Shown here piece after piece: positions 11,587 through 47,903 of a stretch of DNA of 64,000 nt. A model generated the notes under the pieces. It searched no databases and had not been told where the DNA came from. It was given only the letters and a program-made list of their open reading frames with translations. Origin of the DNA: Nitrospirota bacterium (lineage in GTDB: Bacteria; Nitrospirota; UBA9217); the NCBI GenBank assembly GCA_963796285.1, contig CAWCKW010000012.1, positions 224,001 through 288,000 of the forward strand, in the 5' to 3' direction. Position 1 is the first letter of the stretch. The number at the start of each line of letters is the position of its first letter. Both the position numbers and the translations under genes were made by a program.

Positions 11587-12042
11587 ATGGTGCTTCATAG
11601 AAAGATCACTTTCATTGTTACTGTTTTTCTGTTGGCACTCCTTTTCGGTCCGTCTCTTCATGCAGGCAGCCTTGAAACGTCAGGAATACAACAATCGCCG
11701 ATATTCGTTTCTATGCCCGGACCTGGAAAAATACCGATCAATAGCGACTATTATATAATCCTTGGTTTCGACAAGGAACCGAAAATAGGTACCGTGATCC
11801 TGAGGGTCAGTGTTTACACCAAAGACGGGAATAAGGACACCTCACTCGAAATTGCCGCTGATTCCGGCATGCCTTCCATGCGAGGGGCCCATGACACAGG
11901 TGACCTCCCCATGCAACTTTCACGAAAGAAAGAATATCTTCTCCCTATCAATATCGTGATGCCCGGAGAATGGGAAATCCGGCTAACGGTCAGAAAAGCC
12001 GGGAAGGTTATTTACCGTGGCAGTTATCGGTTCGATGTATAA
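11587..12042 (+). CDS. Exported YtkA/FixH-like protein
   Basis: Signal peptide; GMPSMRGAH and MPGEWEIRLTV motifs; AAGGAG RBS. Confidence 0.55.
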   Translation: MVLHRKITFIVTVFLLALLFGPSLHAGSLETSGIQQSPIFVSMPGPGKIPINSDYYIILGFDKEPKIGTVILRVSVYTKDGNKDTSLEIAADSGMPSMRGAHDTGDLPMQLSRKKEYLLPINIVMPGEWEIRLTVRKAGKVIYRGSYRFDV

Positions 12043-13082
12043 GACCTTATCTTGTGTTCGTATTTTCTGCTTTTTGCGGCAGAGCGCTCGGGCTTCGGAT
12101 CACCTTCTTTATTTTGAGGCACAGGAAATGTTCGGCTACTCATCATCGCTAGGGAAGACGGTGCCATACTCGATCAATCCCCGATCTGAAATGCAGCAGC
12201 CCAGTCTGGGGTTCGATTATCTGCAGCGGATTTCAGGTGAACCAGGGGATGTGGCTATATTTGCTCTCCAGTGTCGTCTTGCTGTGACTCCGGGTTGACC
12301 AGGTTCCGGGCTACAGATCCATCCGCGCTGAGCTTTAAAGGGAGCAAGATGGCTTTAAATGCAATTGCAGATATACAATGCTTATTTAAAAGTGAAGACG
12401 CCGTGGACGTACGTATGGATCGGACACAATCGTCCCGCGTTCGGGCTTTCATCAAATCTCGACAGCCATGGACTGTTGCTTGCGACCCTTGAAATGCGTC
12501 GGTATTTATGACCGGGACTGGGGGGTGGGGGGCATACAAGGATTTTTCCTGGGGCGATATTGCGGCCAGCGTCACCTGCGGGTCGGGGATGCCGATCTAT
12601 CAAAGCGTTCCGGGAACGCCGTTCGATAGCCATTATATGACTGCTGCGCGGGTCTCCTACGGTGTGTTGGAACGGGACAATTTCAATGCCGGATTTTCAC
12701 TGGGCTAAGGCCGGACCCTTCAGACCGTAGGATACACGCTTATGGACATCGAAGCCGCGTTCGATGCGGCTGGCGGGTGCGGACTTGACCATGCTCCCGG
12801 ACAACCTTGAGCACCGATTTGAACTGCTCAGGGAGAGTGGCTGGGGGAGGATGTTCGCGCCGTTCTACCGGTTTGGCGTGAATCTTGACCAGGAAGGACG
12901 GTCCAAGATCGAGACCCAGACGATATACTGGAAATACGCCGGAGAAGAGGATCACCAGACTGCATTGTGTTTTTTCGTTCTGGCTGACTCCGGATCTCAC
13001 GGTGCGGACCGAGTATATTTACGATCACCAAATGAACGACAACAGGTTCCTGCTGCAGATCTATTACTATAGCCCGATATGA
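12035..13082 (+). pseudogene. Degraded putative outer-membrane beta-barrel protein
   Basis: Fragments (LLYFEAQ, PSLGFDYLQR, AARVSYG, RFLLQIYYY) broken by frameshifts and an in-frame TAA at 12706. Confidence 0.45.
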
Positions 13083-34688: not shown

Positions 34689-38204
<3,516 letters not shown>

Positions 38205-38218
38205 AGTGGTAAGGAAAG

Positions 38219-38291
38219 CTCCAAATTCCAATGAGTTCAAAATTTAAATATTTGGATTTGGCCAGTATTTGGAATTTCGGATTTCGAATTT
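38219..38291. repeat. Heptamer-like inverted-repeat element between tRNA-Cys and dnaE
   Basis: TCCAAATTCCAA...ATTTGGATTTGG...ATTTGGAATTTCGGATTTCGAATTT. Confidence 0.55.
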
Positions 38292-38312
38292 ATTCCCGCA
38301 AGGCGGGAAAAC

Positions 38313-38388
38313 TGGAGGCGGCGATCGGATTTGAACCGATGAATGAAGGTTTTGCAGACCTCTGCCTTAGCCACTTGGCTACGCCGCC
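38313..38388 (-). tRNA. tRNA-Cys (GCA)
   Basis: GGCGGCGTAGCCAAGTGGCTAAGGCAGAGGTCTGCAAAACCTTCATTCATCGGTTCAAATCCGATCGCCGCCTCCA: 76 nt, cloverleaf, encoded CCA. Confidence 0.97.
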
Positions 38389-38647
38389 ACTTGTATGTAA
38401 TGAGATGAAAAAAGATGAAGGAGTGAGTCGGGAGTTACAAGATATTCGATGAACTATAACTCAAAACTCAGAACTTCAAGCGCTGTACTCTGAACAAGGG
38501 CTGTATGGCACGAACATGCGGGATATTAAGGTAAAACAGACATGAAGTCAAGTTCAAAAAAAGAGGTTATTTTTTTTCGTTCATATGTAGAACGAATGAA
38601 CCTTTGTGGTTGCACTTCTGACCTGTTACGTCGTACACATATCGGGA

Positions 38648-39058
38648 TCAATGCACGTTCTTATCGTTTATATGCTGGAGGGTGAGGGGAATGATGCCTG
38701 CCCGCTCCCCATCGATGAGCGTCTCGACCCAGTACGTACCGGGGACAGTGAACTGTGTGTTGAACCGGACCGATATGTCGCGGTGACGCTGGCTTTCGTT
38801 GAAAAGGCTTATTTTTGTTTCCGATTCCGAGAGGACCTGCTTCTGGTCAGGGGCGAGAAGCCTGATCCTGGACAGAAAATCTCCTTTGCCGCTGGTCCAT
38901 TCGTTCACGATGGCAAAACGATAGTGCAGGGCGGGAAAGGTATTCGCGAAAATGCTCTCGAACAGTCCCATGAAGCTGAATTTACCGCCCATCTCCTGAC
39001 GTACGTCGTCGCAAAGGAGTGTATAGTTTAATCTGGGCTTGATCTTCTTGTCCGCCAT
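38648..39058 (-). CDS. Conserved hypothetical protein (DUF6941-like)
   Basis: LLCDDVRQEMGGKFSFMGLF, FTVPGTYWVE. Confidence 0.65.
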   Translation of the reverse strand: MADKKIKPRLNYTLLCDDVRQEMGGKFSFMGLFESIFANTFPALHYRFAIVNEWTSGKGDFLSRIRLLAPDQKQVLSESETKISLFNESQRHRDISVRFNTQFTVPGTYWVETLIDGERAGIIPLTLQHINDKNVH

Positions 39059-39336
39059 GCGGACACCTTAACATACAATAACGAGGAACGTCAATCTGTT
39101 TTTCACCAGTGATTATCAGCAACCCTATGCGTGAAATATTACAGACCCTCCAATCAAAAGAAAGTGCGATTTTTTTGAATTGATAATCTGGGTGAGCGTT
39201 GTTTAAGGTAAATACCATTAAGTATGATAAATCATCATATTAGACTCGTTTTTTCGAGAGAGGTGATTATTATTTATTTTTGTTGTCAAAAGGTGGTTTT
39301 TATTGATATATTCATAACCGACGCGTTCAAGAAAGG

Positions 39337-41262
39337 GTGGCAGGAATCATGGTGGAACAAAAGCTTACGACAAGAAAAAAATACCTCATAAAGATTGCCG
39401 CGTTTTTGATCTTCCTGTTGCAACTCCTTTCGAAGTTTACTCCTGCTTCAGCGCAAACCGCTGAAGAAAAGAATTTCCTGCTGATGTATTTCAAGGAGGA
39501 GGAACTTGTGGTGGAATCACCCACCAGGAGCCCGAAGCCCGTTTCCCAGGTCGCGGAGAACGTCACGGTCGTTACGGCCGCGGACATTGAGCTCATGAAC
39601 GCGCATACGCTCGCGGACGTGCTGAATACCGTCACCGGGGTCCAGGTATTCATGAACGGAGGACCCGGCCAAGCAGCATATGGGTATATCCAGGGCTCCG
39701 AGCAGAGACACGTTGCGGTCTTCATCGATGGTGTTTCCTTAAACAATCTCGGATCAGAGAACGTGGAACTCGGGATGGTCCCGGTCCAGAACATCGAGAA
39801 GATCGAGATCATCAAAGGACCTGCATCCTCAGCGTGGGGCTCGGCCCTCGGGGGCGTGGTGAACATCATCACCAAGTCGGGAAGCATGGACAATCAGGGC
39901 GGGACGCTCTCCGCATCTTACGGGACAAAAAATACAGACGATTTCCGGGCCGAGGCACGGGGCAAACAGGACAAGGTTGGTTATTATATCACTGCCGGGA
40001 GGCTCCAGTCGGATGGCCTGACAACGCACATGGGCGTCGGCGAAAATAACGGCTATGCGAAACTGACTTATGATTTTACCGAGAAGACCAACATTCTTTT
40101 CACCTTTGGGTATGAGAAAACTTCCCGAGACACGGGGGAATACGCGCCATACGATTTGTCCTTTCACAATACCTGGGAAAGCATTTTTTCATCTCTTGCG
40201 ATCAATTCCGCGATCAGCAAGGACATGGAGCTGGATGTTTCCGTCCGGACGATTCGCCAGGACTATATTAATGATACTTCCACGCTGAGTTCCGGCCTCT
40301 TACTATCGCCGTCGGAGCACGATGCTGATAAGGGATATGGCGCGAGTGCAAAACTCACCTATAAAAACACGTTCCAGACGATCGTGCTCGGCGCGGACTA
40401 TGATGATCAGAAGCTGACATCAAACCTCATAGCGGAGGGCGAACAGGGGATGAAAAAATGGGCCGTGTTCCTGAACGATACCCTGCTATTCAACAAGCTC
40501 GCAATAACGCCCGGCCTCCGGTATGAAAAAACAGATACGAGCGGAGATTCGGCTAGCCCGAGCCTGGGCATGACCTACAGCCTTGCGAACAGCACCATTC
40601 TCAGGGCATACGCGGCAAAAGGCTTCAACATCCCGTCTTTGGGAGATAGATTTGGAGACATCGCGTCATTTTATGTCGCAAATCCCGATTTGAAGGCTGA
40701 GACGGTCTGGTCGTATCAGGCGGGTGTTGAGACCGCTGCCCTGAAATACCTCTGGCTAAAGATGTCGGCATTCAGAAACGAAATACGTGATGCCCTCACT
40801 ACTGAACCTACCTCAACCGCGGGCACCCAGTTTACCTATGTAAATAAAGGGAGGCAGAGGCGCCAGGGCTTCGAGGTCGAGGCGAAGACTGTCCCTGTTT
40901 ACCATTTTTCTCTTTCCGCTGGCGCGGAAATCATCGACGCGAAAGACCTTGACACAGGCGAGAGAGTAACGGACATTCCGACCCGTGTATATGACCTGGG
41001 CCTTCATTACAATGACGAACATACGTTCAAGGCCCTTCTCCAGGGCCGCTATATTGACTGGAATGATCAGACACAGCTTAAGGGGGAATATGGTTCCTTT
41101 GTGTTCGATCTTAGTATGATCAAAAAGATCCTGGAGCGCAAGGACGCCTCTTTGGAGGCCTTTGCGAATGTTCATAACATATTTAACGGAAAACAGTATA
41201 TATTATCGGTCTACAAAAACCCAGAACGGTGGTTCGAAGGGGGAATACGATATAAGTTTTAA
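39337..41262 (+). CDS. TonB-dependent receptor
   Basis: Plug motifs VTVVTAADIE and IEKIEIIKGPASSAWGSALGGVVNIIT; NPDLKAE; C-terminal GIRYKF. Confidence 0.93.
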   Translation: MAGIMVEQKLTTRKKYLIKIAAFLIFLLQLLSKFTPASAQTAEEKNFLLMYFKEEELVVESPTRSPKPVSQVAENVTVVTAADIELMNAHTLADVLNTVTGVQVFMNGGPGQAAYGYIQGSEQRHVAVFIDGVSLNNLGSENVELGMVPVQNIEKIEIIKGPASSAWGSALGGVVNIITKSGSMDNQGGTLSASYGTKNTDDFRAEARGKQDKVGYYITAGRLQSDGLTTHMGVGENNGYAKLTYDFTEKTNILFTFGYEKTSRDTGEYAPYDLSFHNTWESIFSSLAINSAISKDMELDVSVRTIRQDYINDTSTLSSGLLLSPSEHDADKGYGASAKLTYKNTFQTIVLGADYDDQKLTSNLIAEGEQGMKKWAVFLNDTLLFNKLAITPGLRYEKTDTSGDSASPSLGMTYSLANSTILRAYAAKGFNIPSLGDRFGDIASFYVANPDLKAETVWSYQAGVETAALKYLWLKMSAFRNEIRDALTTEPTSTAGTQFTYVNKGRQRRQGFEVEAKTVPVYHFSLSAGAEIIDAKDLDTGERVTDIPTRVYDLGLHYNDEHTFKALLQGRYIDWNDQTQLKGEYGSFVFDLSMIKKILERKDASLEAFANVHNIFNGKQYILSVYKNPERWFEGGIRYKF

Positions 41263-41413
41263 CCTGTAGACAAACACCCGCATCGGCGGACGCCCCTTTC
41301 ACTTTTTTAGATGTCATTCTTGAAATATTTTATCAGGAACTCGGTTTATTAAAACCATAGCCCCGATAGAAGCGCTCGGGGAAGATGAAAAGAGAGGAAA
41401 GGGGGTGAGGTGA

Positions 41414-41569
41414 ATGGCGGTCAAGAAAAAAGCAACTAAGAAAAAAGCTACCAAGAAGAAGGCGACGAAGAAGAAGGCAACAAAAAAGAAAGCTGCAAAG
41501 AAGAAAGTTACAAAAAAAGTAGCCCCAAAAGCTTTGTGCTGCAGCTTCGGGCCGACAAGGTTTATCTAA
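41414..41569 (+). CDS. 51-aa Lys-rich Cys-Cys peptide, putative RiPP precursor (geopeptide-like)
   Basis: MAVKKKATKKKATKKKATKKKATKKKAAKKKVTKKVAPKALCCSFGPTRFI*; GGGGGTGAGGTG RBS region; directly upstream of rSAM/SPASM; absent from the ORF track. Confidence 0.85.
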   Translation: MAVKKKATKKKATKKKATKKKATKKKAAKKKVTKKVAPKALCCSFGPTRFI

Positions 41570-41588
41570 CAGCAACTCCAACCTTAAA

Positions 41589-41614
41589 TGAGGGAGGGCA
41601 AGCGCCCTCCCTCA
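41589..41614 (+). terminator. Strong hairpin between precursor and maturase
   Basis: TGAGGGAGGGC-aagc-GCCCTCCCTCA: perfect 11-bp stem, then GAATTTT. Confidence 0.65.
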
Positions 41615-41634
41615 GAATTTTCATTGAGACGTTC

Positions 41635-42935
41635 ATGACCCTTTCCCGATACTGCAAAATATATCGACATCCCGAAGACAAGGGACTCAGAAAACTTTTT
41701 TCAACCAGTACCATGGCCGCGGTGGACGTTACGCCCGAAGTGCTTCGGGACATTAAAAAGGGTGCACTCTCTGCGAAAAGTGAAAAGAAAACCCTCAAAG
41801 AACTCGGGTTCCTCGTAAAGAATGCTGAGTCTGAGCAACGAGAGCTGCTCGGTTTCATCGATGATTTCAATGCACAGACTACGTCATTCAGCGCCGTCGT
41901 GGTTCTGAATCTTGACTGCAACCTCGCGTGCAGGTATTGCTTCGAAGGCAAAAGAAAGGGCAAATTCATAACATGTCCGCTGAAACGGCGGACGATTTCG
42001 TGGATTTTGTAAGGATCCCGTGATCTCAAGGGCAAGGATGAGATCAATGTCGTCTTTTACGGCGGCGAACCGCTCCTCAGCATGGACACGATTCTCCGCA
42101 TCTCCGAAGAAGATGACGCGTTGTTGCCGATAAAAAGAAGCTGAAATATTAGTTTTGCCTTAATAACCAACGGCACGCTTCTTACCAGGCGCACTGTGGA
42201 AGAAATTGTTGCCCCTCGGCCTTACGACCGCCGGAATGACCCTCGACGGTCCCCGTGAGGTGCACGACCTCTTCAGACCCTTCAAGACCGGCAAAGGCTC
42301 CTTCGATGTTATCGTAAAAAATATTCAGGACGTATGTTCTTTGATCGACGTGCAGGTAGGTGGAAATTATACCAAGGACCATTACTAGGGAATTTCCTCT
42401 GCTGCTCGATCATTTTGCCGAGAAAGGCATAAGTCCCGACAAGATTTCCTCAGTTGATTTCAATCCCGTAATCAATGAACACAATGAATTCGCTCCGCCC
42501 GATTTTCATGACGGTTGCATGTCGACAAATGAGCCGTGGCTGTCCGAGGCGACCGTTTTCCTGAGGGAAGAAACATTGAAACGAGGCTTTCACACGCGTG
42601 CACTCATGCCCTCGGTTTGCGCCATAGAGCGGCCCAACAGCATCATTGTCAATTACGACGGCACGTTGTATAAGTGCCCGGGGCTGCTCGGGAGAAAGGA
42701 CTTCTGTGTCGGCGATCTGACGAATGGAATCATTGATTACAGCGCGTCACACTCGCTCGACAACTGGAAAAATGAAAAATGCCTCTCATGCAGTTATCTG
42801 CCGCTCTGTTTCGGCGGATGCAGATATATGAAACTCGTGCGCGACGGTCATATGCAGGGCGTCGATTGCAAAAAACAATATCTCGACGTGATTCTCGAGG
42901 AACTTGTCCTGCAGGACATTACCTACGATCTTTAA
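41635..42935 (+). CDS. Radical SAM/SPASM peptide maturase (geopeptide-maturase-like), multiple frameshifts
   Basis: MTLSRYCKIY, CNLACRYC, FYGGEPLL, ITNGTLL, TLDGP; SPASM C..GTLYKC..CLSCSYLPLCFGGC..C. Confidence 0.88.
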
Positions 42936-43072
42936 GAAATCCCAAATATGAAGCGATATTTTCATCCCATAGTTCAAGAGCAAATGTCTTACGCAGGTTA
43001 AGAAGATTTAAATTTAGCTCCTGGGTATTATTTGTAAATCGGGCCTTGAGAGTTGGTTTATAATTATCCTCC

Positions 43073-43993
43073 GTGTATACCCTATTCCGACATATTCGAG
43101 CACGATCCCGAAATCTATTCCTTGCCACAGCCGCGTTCGCGGCGTTCGCAGCCAGCTGTCCTGTACCCGCTGAATCGTTCGAGTTAGTCGTCGTTAAAAA
43201 TGCCGATTTGAAACCGTATCAGGATGTGCTCCGTGGCATCAAGGATTCCTGCAGCTGCACTGTGAGGGAATTAAAACTTCCTGAAGATGAAGGTGTGGAG
43301 AAGATACTGAAAGCTTCCCCGAACGCGGTCCTCGCAATCGGGACGAGCGTGTTCAAAAAGGTCAAGGAGATTAAAGGCCTTCCGGTGATTTACACCATGG
43401 TGATGCCGTCGGAGACCGCCGGTCCGCTGCGCCCGAACATCTCCGGCGTGAGCATGGACAGTGACCCCGCAGAATCCATCGCCGCCATAATGGGGGTGTT
43501 TTCCAAGGCTAAGAGTATCGGGATCGTATATGATCCGCACTACACTGCGGCGCTCGTGGAAGAGGCGGTAAAAGCCGCAGCATCCGCGGGAATCGATCTG
43601 GTGGTAAAGCAGGCGCATGACCAGCGTGAAATACCTCGTCTTTTGGATGAGTTGCGCGGCAGGATCGATGTCCTCTGGATGCTGCCTGACCCGACCGTGA
43701 TCAATACCGCAATGGTCGATTATCTGCTCAATTTTTCCTTTCAGTACAATGTGCCGATCTTCTCCTTTTCCAATAAATATGTCGAGATGGGGGCCGTGGC
43801 GGCCCTGGTTGCGGACCCCTATAATATGGGGGTGCAGGCGGGCGAAATCGTCAACAGGCTGTCAGCCGGCCGGTCGAACGCAACGAGAGCATATGCGAGA
43901 ACATCTCACCTCACGATAAACACAAAGGTGGCAGCAAAGATGGGTCTTAAGATCAAGGACGAAATACTCAGGAGGGCGAATATCTTTGAGTAG
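43073..43993 (+). CDS. Periplasmic ABC-type substrate-binding protein with no transporter nearby
   Basis: Signal peptide; IGIVYDP, DVLWMLPDPTV, YVEMGA, LTINTKVAAKMG. Confidence 0.82.
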   Translation: MYTLFRHIRARSRNLFLATAAFAAFAASCPVPAESFELVVVKNADLKPYQDVLRGIKDSCSCTVRELKLPEDEGVEKILKASPNAVLAIGTSVFKKVKEIKGLPVIYTMVMPSETAGPLRPNISGVSMDSDPAESIAAIMGVFSKAKSIGIVYDPHYTAALVEEAVKAAASAGIDLVVKQAHDQREIPRLLDELRGRIDVLWMLPDPTVINTAMVDYLLNFSFQYNVPIFSFSNKYVEMGAVAALVADPYNMGVQAGEIVNRLSAGRSNATRAYARTSHLTINTKVAAKMGLKIKDEILRRANIFE

Positions 43994-45452
43994 ATTAAAA
44001 GAACGCTTCGGCCTCAAGGTGATTTTCTCTTTCGTAGTGGTCATCATCGTCGTGCTGTCGATATTCACCGTGTTCTCAGTTGTCCGTGAAGGAAATAAGG
44101 CGAAAGAAGACCTGAGGGAACAGGGGAACATGCTGGCAGTCCTTCTTTCGCGCAGCCTTATCGTGGGTGTTTTTGCGGAAAACGATAAATTACTGACGGA
44201 TGCGGCGGAGGGCATCATGGGCCTCAAGAATGTCGATTCGGTGACGATTTACAACGCAGATTTAAAAATGCTCAGCGCCGGCGGCAAGACTTCATCCGAA
44301 AAGAATTCGCTTACGGTCCGGAAAACCGGGGTACCTGACGTAAGACGCGTTCAATCGTTGACCATCGTGGAAACGCCGAATGCCTTTGAGTTTATGGAGC
44401 CCATCTTGATCAAATCCGGTTTGAACGAGGACGAGTCGCTGTATTTCGGCCACGGAAACGAGGACAAGACGGAAAAAGTGATAGGATATGTGAGAATCGT
44501 TTTGAGCAAGGACGCCTATCATAAAGAGATTTTGTCCGTAGTTCTCCGAAATGCCGCAATCATGTTGATCTTCATCTCTTCAAGCATCGTCATCATCTAT
44601 TTTGCGGTAAAAAAGGTCACCCGGCCGCTCGATACGTTGACCAGGAGCGTGAAGGCCCTCGAAAAGGGGATGCGCGTCGAACAGATGCCGGTTGAGACCG
44701 AGGATGAGATAGGAAACCTTGCTTCGGCCTTTAATGCCATGATCATCGCGCGAGGCCTGGCCGAGGAATCGCTGCGCTCCATGGTTTCGGAAATGTCGTT
44801 GATGGAATCGCGGATCGAGGAACGGGAACGACATCTTATCGCAGCGGATCTTCACGATTTTGTCGGGCAAAACCTCGCGGTGCTGTTGTTCAAGTTGGCT
44901 GCGTTGCGGAAAATGCTCTCTTCTCCGGAGGTTATCCATCAAGTGGAGGAACTACGTGAACTCATCGGGAAAACCATCCAGTATACGAGGTCGCTGACGG
45001 TTGAACTCAGCCCTCCCATTTTGTCCGAAATCGGATTTTTGGCCGCTGTAGAGTCTCTTGCCGAGGGAATCCAAAAAACGCACGGGATACGGATCAGTAT
45101 CTCGGATGACGGTCAACTCAAACAGGCCGATGACGAAACTCGATATCTCCTCTTCAGGATCGTCCGTGAACTCCTGATGAATATCGTAAAACACGCGCAG
45201 GCGAGTTCAGTAAAAATAAGTCTCGCCAGAAACGAAGACATCATGCATATTGCCGTTGAAGACAACGGCATCGGATTCGACACGGAAAAGGGTGCCGGAA
45301 GGAACAGTGGATTTGGACTGTTTACGATCCGCGAGCGGTTGAAACGATTGGGAGGATATTTCGCGGTTGATTCCAGGCCTGGTTTTGGAACGAAGGTGAT
45401 CCTGTCTGTTCCGCTCAAATCAAAACCGGGTGATCAGAAAGGGATAGTATGA
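43986..45452 (+). CDS. Membrane HAMP histidine kinase (HisKA_3 / NarX-like)
   Basis: Two TMs, HAMP DEIGNLASAFNAM, ERHLIAADLHDFVGQ, EDNGIGF, GFGLFTIRER. Confidence 0.92.
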   Translation: MSRLKERFGLKVIFSFVVVIIVVLSIFTVFSVVREGNKAKEDLREQGNMLAVLLSRSLIVGVFAENDKLLTDAAEGIMGLKNVDSVTIYNADLKMLSAGGKTSSEKNSLTVRKTGVPDVRRVQSLTIVETPNAFEFMEPILIKSGLNEDESLYFGHGNEDKTEKVIGYVRIVLSKDAYHKEILSVVLRNAAIMLIFISSSIVIIYFAVKKVTRPLDTLTRSVKALEKGMRVEQMPVETEDEIGNLASAFNAMIIARGLAEESLRSMVSEMSLMESRIEERERHLIAADLHDFVGQNLAVLLFKLAALRKMLSSPEVIHQVEELRELIGKTIQYTRSLTVELSPPILSEIGFLAAVESLAEGIQKTHGIRISISDDGQLKQADDETRYLLFRIVRELLMNIVKHAQASSVKISLARNEDIMHIAVEDNGIGFDTEKGAGRNSGFGLFTIRERLKRLGGYFAVDSRPGFGTKVILSVPLKSKPGDQKGIV

Positions 45453-46093
45453 GCATAAGAATTCTTCTTACCGATGATCACAAACTTCTGCGCGAGGGTC
45501 TGCATGCATTGATCGAAGAACAGCCGGACATGACCGTTATTGCGGAGGCAGAAGACGGAAGATCCACTGTGCAGCTTGCCGCAAAGCTGAAGCCCGATAT
45601 CATTGTGATGGACATCTCCATGCCTGGCATGAATGGAATGGAAGCCACCCGCCAAATCCTGTCCAAAAACCCCGGCATCAAGGTGCTTGCACTTTCAATG
45701 CATACTGACAGGCGGTTCATTGTAGAGATGCTCAGTGCGGGTGCCTCCGGTTATCTCTTGAAAGATTGCGCTTTTGAGGAATTGATCTGCGCCCTGCACG
45801 CCCTGGCCGATCAGAGAACGTATCTCAGCCCGAAGATCTGCGATCTGGTGGTCAAAGATTATGCTTGCCGCAACTCAAAATCGACGTTATCGTCCTCTGT
45901 TCTGTCGGCAAGAGAGCGTGAAGTGCTGCAGCTTCTGGCCGAGGGCAAATCCACCCGGAAAATTGCATCCATCCTCCATGTAGGCATGAAGACCGTTGAA
46001 ACCTACCGCCAACAAATCATGGAGAAGCTCGACATCCACACCATCGCAGAACTTACCAAGTTTGCCATCCGCGAAGGTCTCACCTCCCTGTAA
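45449..46093 (+). CDS. NarL/FixJ-family response regulator
   Basis: REC (DDH, MDISMP) plus LuxR HTH (LSAREREVLQLLAEG). Confidence 0.95.
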   Translation: MSIRILLTDDHKLLREGLHALIEEQPDMTVIAEAEDGRSTVQLAAKLKPDIIVMDISMPGMNGMEATRQILSKNPGIKVLALSMHTDRRFIVEMLSAGASGYLLKDCAFEELICALHALADQRTYLSPKICDLVVKDYACRNSKSTLSSSVLSAREREVLQLLAEGKSTRKIASILHVGMKTVETYRQQIMEKLDIHTIAELTKFAIREGLTSL

Positions 46094-46171
46094 AGAAGGG
46101 GCGTATCGGCATACGGTCCCTGCACCCCCGGCATCCATTATCCATCGGCTATCAGGAAAAACGAGGCTGAA

Positions 46172-46190
46172 AATCAGGGAATCCCTGATT
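46172..46190. promoter_or_regulatory. Palindromic operator candidate
   Basis: AATCAGGGA-A-TCCCTGATT, perfect 9-1-9; extra ATCAGG half-site at 46151. Confidence 0.55.
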
Positions 46191-46355
46191 GTTATTTTCC
46201 GTATTCTCTGCTATTAAACTTAAAAGGCAGTTGGCTGAAAATTTGCCCCATGAGAGATGATTACGCTCTAACGGGGTAAACGCAGATAACCGTCGATAAA
46301 GCATAGTGAATAGCTCATTTCAGAGAGTAATCCTTTTAAATGGAGCGAGGAGAAT

Positions 46356-47375
46356 ATGGCAGCGGAAAATGCGGATAATAAGGACATGATGCGCGGAGAC
46401 CCATGGCTGTTCACAACGCTTAGCGAAACTGTGGGCGAAGGTGTGACCCTGAGCGACAGGACAGGCCGGTTCGCTTTGTATAACTCGAATATGAGAAAAA
46501 TAACCGGATATACCGATGCAGAGACCGGCACGTTGAATGAGTATTTGGTGCTGTTGTTTCAAGATTCTGCCGGAAGTGAGAGAGCGATGTCGGAAGTCCA
46601 TGAAATATTTCACAGAGAATGCCGCGACAGAGAGACCGTGATCCGTGCTAAAGACGGAAATTCAAAAACCGTACTTGTATCCACATCGCCTGTGGAGTAT
46701 CAGGGCGTGCATTTTCTGTTACATTCCTACCGTGACATTACCTGCAGCAAGACTGTGGAGGAAAAGCTCCTTATGGCCGAAAAACGGTATCGCGTGCTTT
46801 GTGAACAATCATTTGACGCCCTTGTGATCATCGATCCGGTAACGTTTCTTCCGATCGATTTCAACGACAAGGCACCGGGCCTTTTTGGGTATACAAAAGA
46901 AGAGTTCACCCGCATAAAATTTGATACGTTAGAAGTTCGCGGAATTTTTAGAAATAAAAGATCTCTCAATAAGCCGAAGCCTGCTGAAGAAGGGGACAAT
47001 TTTGAAACCGAAGTTCGTACGAAAAACGCGGGATTAAAGAATGTCAAAGTAAGCATGCGGATCGTCGAACTATCGGGAAAACGTTCATTCCAGTGCATCT
47101 TTCATGAGATTAGTGATAGTAAGAGTGAAGTGATCAAGAAGGACAAGGGAACTGTTGAATTGCACAACACACGTGCGAAAACCGTGATGTTGAAAGGCAC
47201 GATTCCCATCTGCTATGTTTGTAGAAAAATTTATGACGAAAAGGGCTTCTGGCGCCCGATGGAATCATCCACCAGCGAACGCTCGGATGTTTTGTTCAGT
47301 CACGAATTATGCCCGGTTTGCGAGGAAAGATTTTACCCGAAACACTTAAGTAAGCGTACACGCGAAGAAACGTAA
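46356..47375 (+). CDS. PAS-PAS protein with C-terminal CxxC...CxxC module
   Basis: Two PAS domains; IPICYVCRKI...FSHELCPVC. Confidence 0.75.
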   Translation: MAAENADNKDMMRGDPWLFTTLSETVGEGVTLSDRTGRFALYNSNMRKITGYTDAETGTLNEYLVLLFQDSAGSERAMSEVHEIFHRECRDRETVIRAKDGNSKTVLVSTSPVEYQGVHFLLHSYRDITCSKTVEEKLLMAEKRYRVLCEQSFDALVIIDPVTFLPIDFNDKAPGLFGYTKEEFTRIKFDTLEVRGIFRNKRSLNKPKPAEEGDNFETEVRTKNAGLKNVKVSMRIVELSGKRSFQCIFHEISDSKSEVIKKDKGTVELHNTRAKTVMLKGTIPICYVCRKIYDEKGFWRPMESSTSERSDVLFSHELCPVCEERFYPKHLSKRTREET

Positions 47376-47459
47376 GCGAGAATCGACACGGTTGATCAAC
47401 AATGAAGCAATACAGTCGGAGTCACTCAACGCGTGATGAGACAACAAAAAGGTGATGGC

Positions 47460-47903
47460 ATGAGTATCAGAGTTCTTCTTGCTGATGATCACAAGCTGTT
47501 ACGGGAGGGGCTTCGCGCTTTGATCGAAGATCAGCCGCAAATGGAAGTGATCGCGGAGGCGGAAGACGGGCTGACTGCGCTGCAGCTTGTTGGTGAATTA
47601 TCGCCCGACGTCGTCGTCATGGACATTTCCATGCCTCGAATGAACGGCATGGAAGCCACCCGTCAAATCATTTCCACGGCCCCCGGCGTTAAAGTCCTTG
47701 CACTGTCAATGCATGACGATGATCGATTTGTGGAGGAGATGCGTAACGCGGGCGCATCCGGCTATTTGTTGAAAGATTGTGCTTTTGATGAATTGATTCA
47801 TGCCATTCATGCTGTGGTCGAACAGGGAACGTACTTAAGTCCGAAGATAAACGTTCCGAGAGATTGTCAACGAGCCGCCGTCGGCAGAGATATTGTGAGG
47901 TGA
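47460..47903 (+). CDS. Stand-alone receiver, paralog of 45449 lacking the HTH
   Basis: MSIRVLLADDHKLLREGL...YLSPKI, then stop. Confidence 0.85.
   Translation: MSIRVLLADDHKLLREGLRALIEDQPQMEVIAEAEDGLTALQLVGELSPDVVVMDISMPRMNGMEATRQIISTAPGVKVLALSMHDDDRFVEEMRNAGASGYLLKDCAFDELIHAIHAVVEQGTYLSPKINVPRDCQRAAVGRDIVR

Follow-up and report, generated by a model that had tools for sequence, protein, structure and literature searches.

A probable geopeptide-type precursor gene with a histone-H1-like lysine tract next to an interrupted radical SAM maturase gene in a Nitrospirota bacterium

Background

Does a 51-codon open reading frame (ORF) that consists largely of lysine repeats and ends in a short tail with two adjacent cysteines encode a peptide, and if so, of what kind? 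This question is raised by a locus in a Nitrospirota bacterium (GenBank assembly GCA_963796285.1, contig CAWCKW010000012.1, positions 224,001 to 288,000 of the forward strand). The whole stretch of 64,000 nucleotides (nt) that was analyzed is called the window, and coordinates refer to it. The ORF, named P0001 here, is located directly upstream of a gene related to the geopeptide radical SAM maturases. Our analysis indicates that P0001 is probably the precursor gene of a geopeptide-type cassette for a ribosomally made peptide that is modified after translation (RiPP), in a leader variant that carries a histone-H1-like lysine tract and works as proposed below.

Results

The precursor gene

The translation of P0001 is MAVKKKATKKKATKKKATKKKATKKKAAKKKVTKKVAPKALCCSFGPTRFI (51 codons). 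It contains 21 Lys and 1 Arg, whereas Asp and Glu are absent. Six pentads (four KKKAT, one KKKAA, and one KKKVT) lead into KKVAPKA and the presumed core LCCSFGPTRFI. The ORF cannot extend upstream because an in-frame TGA immediately precedes its ATG. The Ala and Thr codons of the four identical KKKAT units read gca act, gct acc, gcg acg, and gca aca. At least 7 substitutions separate these units, every one of them synonymous and in the third codon position. Since only 9 of the 45 single-base changes possible per unit are silent, the probability of this pattern is 0.2^7 = 1.3e-5 for changes that take no account of the encoded protein. The sequence and its translation thus bear out what the initial annotation had described, namely a 51-residue peptide with 21 lysines, no acidic residue, six pentads, and the tail LCCSFGPTRFI; the codons that it had listed for the repeats were confirmed, and its conclusion that the repeats are under selection at the protein level holds. 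Its statement that the gene is unannotated could be checked indirectly via a collection of 15 billion proteins, in which none of 6 sequences (exact P0001 and five related polycationic precursors) was present.

The maturase gene starts at 41635, 65 nt 3' of P0001 and on the same strand, and matches TIGR04280 (geopeptide radical SAM maturase). When one genome per species was searched, 188 relatives of this enzyme emerged, and the best 80 were kept for comparison. These derive mostly from Nitrospirota (metagenome-assembled genomes of the Thermodesulfovibrionia type) and Thermodesulfobacteriota. A peptide with two adjacent cysteines, referred to as a CC peptide, was found upstream of the maturase in 74 of the 80 loci and ends 38-513 nt before the enzyme. 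Among the other 6 loci, 1 was partly masked, 3 were situated at a contig edge without upstream sequence, and in 2 none was found. Four other genera of the same taxonomic family possess intact TIGR04280 genes scoring 565-574 bits (cut-off 400). Each of these is preceded by a small CC peptide just 5', and two of the peptides carry KKKxx repeats.

In the alignment of 73 distinct precursors, including that of the window, the two Cys are the only invariant columns. The pair is followed by 7-11 residues, in P0001 (C42-C43) by 8, and the core has the loose consensus CC-x-G-[AG]-[FL]-x-P-[FL]-R. A strand in the leader reads [IV][IV][IV]L-x-x-G-[IV]-[DE] in the common form and (K)RIxVKKKG in the other members of the clade of the window; the residues of P0001 aligned with it are MAVKKKAT. 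The hidden Markov model (HMM) of the precursor family, TIGR04229 'geopeptide', matched 18 of the 73 upstream peptides at E <= 10, with a best value of 3.8e-5. P0001 gave no match to this 22-position model (threshold 30 bits) even at E <= 10. The resemblance to geopeptide precursors claimed in the initial annotation is therefore upheld in part: a TIGR04280 gene lies downstream and CC peptides are conserved upstream of the homologous maturases, but the family model itself misses P0001. As far as can be judged from context and architecture, and not by HMM, P0001 is a geopeptide precursor. Because the same architecture precedes homologous enzymes in other genomes, it is also, on sequence comparison, a real gene and more than a chance ORF.

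An exact 24-nt pattern derived from the core had no match in metagenome contigs. In one locus (L086) tandem precursor copies (2618-2740 and 2775-2933) were located 5' of a single maturase. Another genome, G013, has a second geopeptide cassette on contig C6 (L014/L015) whose maturase is split over two frames (profile 79-230 and 231-426), besides an intact copy on another contig.

The polycationic leader and its distribution

The common precursor comprises about 30 residues of the form M-K-K-R-I-V-V-L-K-K-G-V-D-K-K...CC... and its leader is basic in Nitrospirota and acidic in Thermodesulfobacteriota. Relative to this form the repeat tract of P0001 is indeed expanded, as had been supposed. Long lysine-rich leaders without acidic residues were present in 16 of the 74 loci, and the tract is absent in the other 58. 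An automatic rule had flagged 11 of these 16; L052, L060, L065, L075, and L081 were added by eye, since they have 0 acidic residues, 8-22 Lys or Arg, and no IVVL motif.

In the maturase tree the polycationic leaders fall into three groups, corresponding to 3 changes, and well-supported branches require at least 2 of them. The window maturase, read with X at the frame breaks, is sister to that of locus L026 (96 in the Shimodaira-Hasegawa-like approximate likelihood ratio test, SH-aLRT) within a seven-member clade (support 95). All seven members, the window and six other loci, have strict KKKxx pentads in 4-7 units; two further clades have looser polycationic leaders. Peptides of the clade start with MAKRIxVKKKG, whereas that of the window starts with MAVKKKAT and lacks the first four residues (MAKR). 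The contig of a relative from run X20 is short of exactly one 15-nt unit at 41453 and stays in frame; the repeat number therefore changes by whole units.

The charge of the leader ranges over the loci from strongly acidic up to +33. Maturases paired with polycationic leaders were not more acidic, their N-terminal domains having a mean net charge of +0.6, compared to -5.2 with short basic leaders and -0.8 with acidic leaders. Charge complementarity between leader and enzyme was rejected (Spearman -0.06, p 0.60, for the N-terminal domain).

Modelled contact between peptide and enzyme

The complex was modelled with custom alignments for the nearest intact pair, the maturase and peptide of locus L026, and not for P0001. 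Its score of 0.75 stands against 0.02 in the best of three controls. When the score was calibrated, this mark was attained by 58 of the 80 solved complexes and by 2 of the 110 mismatched pairs. Contacts agreed between runs to at least 34%, and the predicted local distance difference test value (pLDDT) of the partner was at least 43. The confident interface joins peptide residues 4-14 (RITVKKKGAKK) to maturase residues 20-36 and 49-57, and the lysine tract past residue 14 was unplaced. The model supports a predicted binding of peptide and enzyme. Because the confident contacts involve the N-terminal strand and the lysine tract is unplaced, the tract is, on this model, best interpreted as an expanded linker that connects the core to a short recognition strand, rather than as a recognition element.

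Hairpin, leader region, and cassette neighbours

The features of the locus are listed in Table 1. The hairpin between precursor and maturase starts twenty bases past the P0001 stop, and the intergenic region folds with -27.1 kcal/mol (z -5.35). A comparable hairpin (z < -2) was found in 62 of the 67 intergenic regions tested. Its arms are frequently the same, GAGGGAG...CTCCCTC (GAGGGAGAGC ... GCTCTCCCTC), at loci whose enzymes are only 45-60% identical (L026-L105). For 41263-41640 the predicted fold has z -3.35 (100 shuffles), and in it the Shine-Dalgarno-like stretch before the precursor pairs with the C/U-rich CGCCCCUUU, which lies about 100 nt further upstream. Clade members differ in the length of this spacer (about 40 to 190 nt), which weakens the predicted fold. 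A riboswitch was considered and rejected, since no Rfam family matched at E <= 1 within 39000-43200. At gathering scores, Rfam annotated only a transfer RNA (tRNA) in the whole window.

Table 1. Features of the cassette and its components in the window
Feature	Position	Strand	Remarks
TonB-dependent outer-membrane receptor, 641 residues	39337..41262	+	first cassette gene; Pfam Plug E 2.9e-23, TonB_dep_Rec_b-barrel E 2.4e-38
Intergenic leader	41263..41413	+	purine-rich Shine-Dalgarno-like GGAAAGGGGGTGAGG at about 41396-41410, before the ATG
Precursor peptide gene P0001, putative	41414..41569	+	51 residues, ATG to TAA; homologs upstream of other maturases
Residues 1-10, MAVKKKATKK	41414..41443	+	aligned with clade strand (K)RIxVKKKG, the predicted contact strand; transfer to the window inferred from the alignment
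Polycationic tract of pentad repeats, residues 4-33	41423..41512	+	KKKAT x4, KKKAA, KKKVT
Presumed core LCCSFGPTRFI	41534..41566	+	Cys42 41537-41539, Cys43 41540-41542
Hairpin (11 bp, G+C-rich), then T-rich GAATTTTCAT	41589..41614	+	between precursor and maturase; terminator- or attenuator-like
Geopeptide radical SAM/SPASM maturase, frame interrupted	41635..42935	+	TIGR04280 in three frames
Insertion sites in the maturase	about 41968-9, 42015, 42105, 42116, 42151, 42200, 42388	+	from alignment with L106 and L107
Periplasmic ABC-type substrate-binding-like protein, 306 residues	43073..43993	+	PF04392 E 1.9e-26
Membrane histidine kinase, 488 residues	43986..45452	+	8-nt overlap with the binding-protein stop; call from reading the translation
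Response regulator with C-terminal helix-turn-helix, 214 residues	45449..46093	+	call from reading the translation

The neighbourhood recurs at other loci. A receptor homolog was located upstream on the same strand in 68 of the 70 maturase loci with at least 1200 nt of upstream sequence. Binding-protein homologs followed downstream on the same strand in 45 of the 73 loci with at least 900 nt downstream, and about nine further loci had the binding protein upstream on the opposite strand. Kinase homologs were present downstream in 35 of the 65 loci with at least 2200 nt downstream, and homologs of the response regulator stand at the end of several loci.

A tRNA gene (38316-38388, minus strand) lies about 1 kb upstream of the cassette, and within the 38000-47000 region the G+C content is 45-52% in the cassette as compared to 57-59% in the DNA polymerase gene just before it. 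Because of the tRNA, the lower G+C content, and the absence from eight other genomes of the genus described below, there are hints that the cassette is an acquired island. Behind the cassette, a 156-residue receiver-only paralog of its regulator (47433-47903, plus strand) ends where the DNA-binding domain should start, and a receiver-PAS-GGDEF protein follows immediately.

The interrupted maturase gene

The initial annotation mentions neither the interruption of the maturase frame nor the TonB-dependent receptor. TIGR04280 matches the maturase gene in three pieces, which cover profile positions 1-109 (E 3.7e-31, 108.5 bits), 188-247 (E 6.9e-24, 84.6 bits), and 248-427 (E 1.8e-80, 271 bits). 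The CxxxCxxC motif is present as CNLACRYC at about 41914-41937 in the first piece, and the SPASM model TIGR04085 matches the last piece (E 1.8e-14). A protein search of metagenome contigs with the intact C-terminal piece resulted in 8 loci, the closest with 83% identity. In comparison with L106 and L107, two intact metagenome homologs that are 83% and 74% identical in the C-terminal piece, the window has eight inserted bases of its own in seven events and no deletions. Homologs at 83% identity place the insertions but are too distant to separate errors from decay.

Closer sequences came from runs X2, X4, and X20. These represent relatives and not the window strain, as 0 of their contigs were 99% alike. 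Close relatives whose peptide gene is almost the same have an uninterrupted maturase. At the frame breaks the contigs from X2, X4, and X20 differ from the window in length such that the frame is restored. That from X2 is identical at 422 of 427 positions across 41300-41726, including the peptide gene, and differs in length by -2 at 41968/41970, from 214 to 209 letters at 42013-42228, and by -1 at 42387. Compared over 41300-43100, X2 and the window form a mosaic: the peptide gene with its flanks shows 5 differences in 427 nt, whereas the maturase has 24 in 211 nt and another 49 in 873 nt, and 41726-41803 as well as 42013-42228 are swapped for unalignable sequence of similar length.

Discussion

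Proposed mode of action

In the proposed pathway the precursor would be transcribed behind the TonB-dependent receptor gene, and the hairpin past its stop would curb read-through such that more precursor than enzyme is made. The N-terminal domain of the maturase, a putative peptide-binding domain resembling a RiPP recognition element (RRE), would then hold the N-terminal strand, that is (KR)IxVKKKG in the relatives and MAVKKKAT here. The (KKKxx)n tract would serve as a flexible, positively charged linker in place of one of about 10 residues and give the core access to the active site. What underlies these three steps, namely gene identity, architecture, and conservation, rests on the computations presented here. 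Subsequently, the enzyme would cross-link the core via one invariant Cys or both, most likely by a thioether to a residue in the 8-residue tail. Thioether cross-links of the Cys pair had been inferred in the initial annotation as well. The nearest NCBIfam neighbours of the maturase (CefB, CcpM, SCIFF, PapB, and QhpD) are all Cys-directed peptide maturases, which makes a thioether the best guess. Finally, the product might be released, taken up again via the co-encoded receptor, and sensed by the binding protein, kinase, and regulator, acting as a signal or metal carrier. We infer the cross-link and the role of the product.

Several observations weigh against this interpretation. The precursor model TIGR04229 misses P0001, and in the genome the maturase does not occur as a single protein with at least 400 bits to TIGR04280. 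The latter cut-off is missed because of the frame breaks and not because of divergence. As it stands, the maturase is not translatable as one protein, and the cassette may no longer function in this genome. At E <= 1e-40 no maturase was found in the eight other genomes of the genus, and the DNA of the locus is absent from them save for chance matches to lysine-repeat DNA. No conserved exporter, protease, or further tailoring enzyme was found in the 3-kb flanks of the loci. A conserved Asp, Glu, Thr, or Asn acceptor is missing from the core, so that the type of cross-link is a guess. The pass of the L026 model may reflect likeness to a solved leader-enzyme complex, as the best PDB match of the maturase is 5wgg (E 8.3e-17, 64 bits over residues 51-247), which we take to be leader-bound CteB. 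Expression is supported by a contig of one relative in an RNA library only, and this library may hold DNA. The maturase N-terminal domains paired with polycationic leaders are not more acidic, and no selective cause of the charge was found.

Relic or functional cassette

The alternative that survives best holds that the cassette is a relic. It would be decaying in this genome, the maturase being a true pseudogene and the precursor ORF not yet hit, and the peptide would be unmodified or not made. This explanation concerns the state of the cassette in this genome and not the identity of the gene. We regard it as a serious possibility, although somewhat doubtful. The seven frame-breaking insertions are what a pseudogene would show, there is no second copy of the maturase in the genome (the next TIGR04280 match has E 4.3e-8), and the cassette is missing from the eight other genomes of the genus. 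Furthermore, a 407-nt contig from X1, the closest run, is 99-100% like the window and has no deletion at 41968/41970, places at which a base is absent from the relatives in X2 and X20. Against this last point, X1 may be the source sample itself, and its contig has six gap letters relative to the window, three of them with positions listed.

The pattern of the breaks argues in the other direction. All eight extra bases are insertions, and the seven events fall within 421 of 1298 nt; by our own arithmetic, seven uniformly placed points would lie that close together with P of about 0.006. With the extra bases dropped, a clean conserved frame results whose ratio of nonsynonymous to synonymous substitutions (dN/dS) is 0.27 versus L106, compared to 0.19 for the intact pair L106 and L107. 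The end branch of the window on the maturase tree is 0.21 against a median of 0.32, so that the substitution load which seven neutral indels should have brought with them is missing. A second gene, at about 11990-13080 on the plus strand, is likewise spread over at least four frames (tblastn frames 1, 3, 1, and 2) and fits local consensus errors. Its homologs are a 373-residue protein of genome G021 and a 394-residue protein of G013, and a DNA search yielded no orthologs in the genus; either assembly errors have produced another island here, or this is a further gene with multiple interruptions. Elsewhere in the window long genes are intact, for example that of the 1183-residue DNA polymerase III alpha subunit, and frames of at least 130 codons make up 87% of the window. 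Since only insertions occur, since they cluster and come without a substitution load, and since another island of this kind exists, local consensus errors from long-read or mixed-strain assembly fit the breaks in the maturase at least as well as decay does.

Role of the polycation

A second alternative grants a geopeptide-like gene and assigns the polycation to the working part of the final product, which would bind a polyanion (DNA, polyphosphate, lipopolysaccharide, or the receptor surface) or form a membrane-active peptide with a cross-linked cap. A binding module of this kind had also been envisaged in the initial annotation. It would account for polycationic leaders in three maturase clades with at least 2 forced changes, for repeat amino acids kept despite synonymous drift, and for the lack of a charge match in the enzyme. 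It is also in line with the missing leader protease in the cassette and with a weak likeness to the H1-like model NF038053 (E 0.081 for P0001, and down to 2.8e-6 among 9 of the 73 peptides). Yet these H1-like matches lie far below the cut-off (13.2 versus 80 bits) and are typical of any Lys/Ala repeat. Within the clade there are between 4 and 7 repeats, and even close strains differ by one unit, as for a loosely constrained spacer, and 58 of 74 loci do without the tract. We therefore consider a functional polycation unlikely and continue to read the tract as a linker.

A bolder form of this idea, to which we give a still lower probability, is that polycationic geopeptides are a distinct class of products which arose two or three times in Nitrospirota and in which the H1-like arm stays on the cross-linked Cys-Cys cap. 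If so, the arm would dock the peptide on a polyanion such as the outer membrane, extracellular DNA, or polyphosphate. The TonB-dependent receptor and the pair of binding protein and kinase would recognize the cap, and the whole would constitute an undescribed peptide signal or metal shuttle.

Nucleoid protein or chance ORF

P0001 might, thirdly, encode a small histone-H1-like nucleoid protein with the radical SAM gene as a coincidental neighbour, which appears very improbable. The composition fits, there are weak matches to H1-like models, and three other proteins of the genome have similar Lys-rich tracts, one of them with a tail closely related at the DNA level. The scores nevertheless remain below the cut-offs (13.2 of 80 bits for NF038053 and 10.6 of 40 bits for PF07382), the position upstream of the maturase is fixed, and 73 distinct peptides, the majority of them not rich in lysine, retain the CC tail at a conserved distance from the C-terminus.

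In total, four ORFs with such tracts were counted in the genome. The one with the related tail, located at about 121946-122416 of G000:C1 (L025 1127..1597, plus strand), encodes a 156-residue protein with a metal-site-like N-terminal CxxC...CC domain and a (KKKAT)n C-terminal tail. Over 92 nt the DNA of this tail shares 83% identity with the P0001 repeats, and the N-terminal domain presumably resembles desulforedoxin.

That P0001 is a chance ORF in A/G-rich repeat DNA, as its shortness, low complexity, and omission by the pipelines behind protein collections might suggest, is practically dismissed by an architecture kept across genera, repeats differing only synonymously (P 1.3e-5), the conserved hairpin past the stop, the Shine-Dalgarno-like stretch upstream, and the modelled enzyme binding in the nearest pair.

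Significance

With 188 relatives at one genome per species, the geopeptide family is widespread in anaerobic Nitrospirota and Thermodesulfobacteriota, and a TonB-dependent receptor accompanies it in nearly every case. Gene callers overlook its precursors, and so, for the most part, does the curated model TIGR04229. Short low-complexity ORFs adjoining radical SAM genes can be real, which is a warning for annotation. The leaders of 4-7 units provide a natural series for probing how far a RiPP leader can be stretched and what the tract does.

Our literature search found no paper naming 'geopeptide', TIGR04280, or TIGR04229, no paper joining radical SAM, SPASM, TonB-dependent, Geobacter, and RiPP, and no experimental work on the family. 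The portions available to us of two radical SAM/SPASM peptide-discovery papers do not name it.

Comparison with known systems

H1-like proteins with Lys/Ala repeats (PF07382 HC2 and NF038053) share with P0001 the short Lys-rich repeats and the lack of acidic residues. In contrast to these, P0001 has 51 residues and a hydrophobic CC tail, scores under their cut-offs, and stands in the context of a RiPP cassette.

Peptide-derived compounds can be scavenged via TonB-dependent receptors, as is the case for methanobactin with MbnT and for pyrroloquinoline quinone (PQQ) with PqqU. As in these systems, the genes for a ribosomal peptide and a modifying enzyme are grouped with that of an outer-membrane receptor in the window. 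Here, however, there are no further tailoring enzymes and no exporter, and the enzyme family is unlike that of methanobactin. The receptor matches generic models below their cut-offs only, for example the PqqU model with a weak E of 1.5e-15.

The thioether systems of the SCIFF or CteA-CteB type (sactipeptides and ranthipeptides) are similar in the N-terminal peptide-binding domain, the radical SAM core, and the SPASM domain of the enzyme, and in a Cys-bearing core that follows a leader bound as a strand. The relationship of the window enzyme is limited to 64 bits over 51-247 and to 15-26 bits with TIGR03974. Moreover, the core has two adjacent Cys and not six spread ones, a conserved acidic or Thr acceptor is missing, and a TonB-dependent receptor is encoded alongside.

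The closest known system is the geopeptide system itself (TIGR04229 and TIGR04280), which has been defined by comparative genomics only. There, as here, a peptide with a C-terminal CC is located directly 5' of a TIGR04280 enzyme, the same receptor and sensor neighbours are found, and the same hairpin follows the precursor. The locus in the window differs in that the precursor HMM has no match and the enzyme gene is interrupted. In comparison to the common form of the precursor, six KKKxx pentads replace the linker of about 10 residues, and IVVLxxG[IV][DE] is reduced to MAV-KKK. The peptide of the window is thus a polycationic variant of the computationally defined geopeptide kind.

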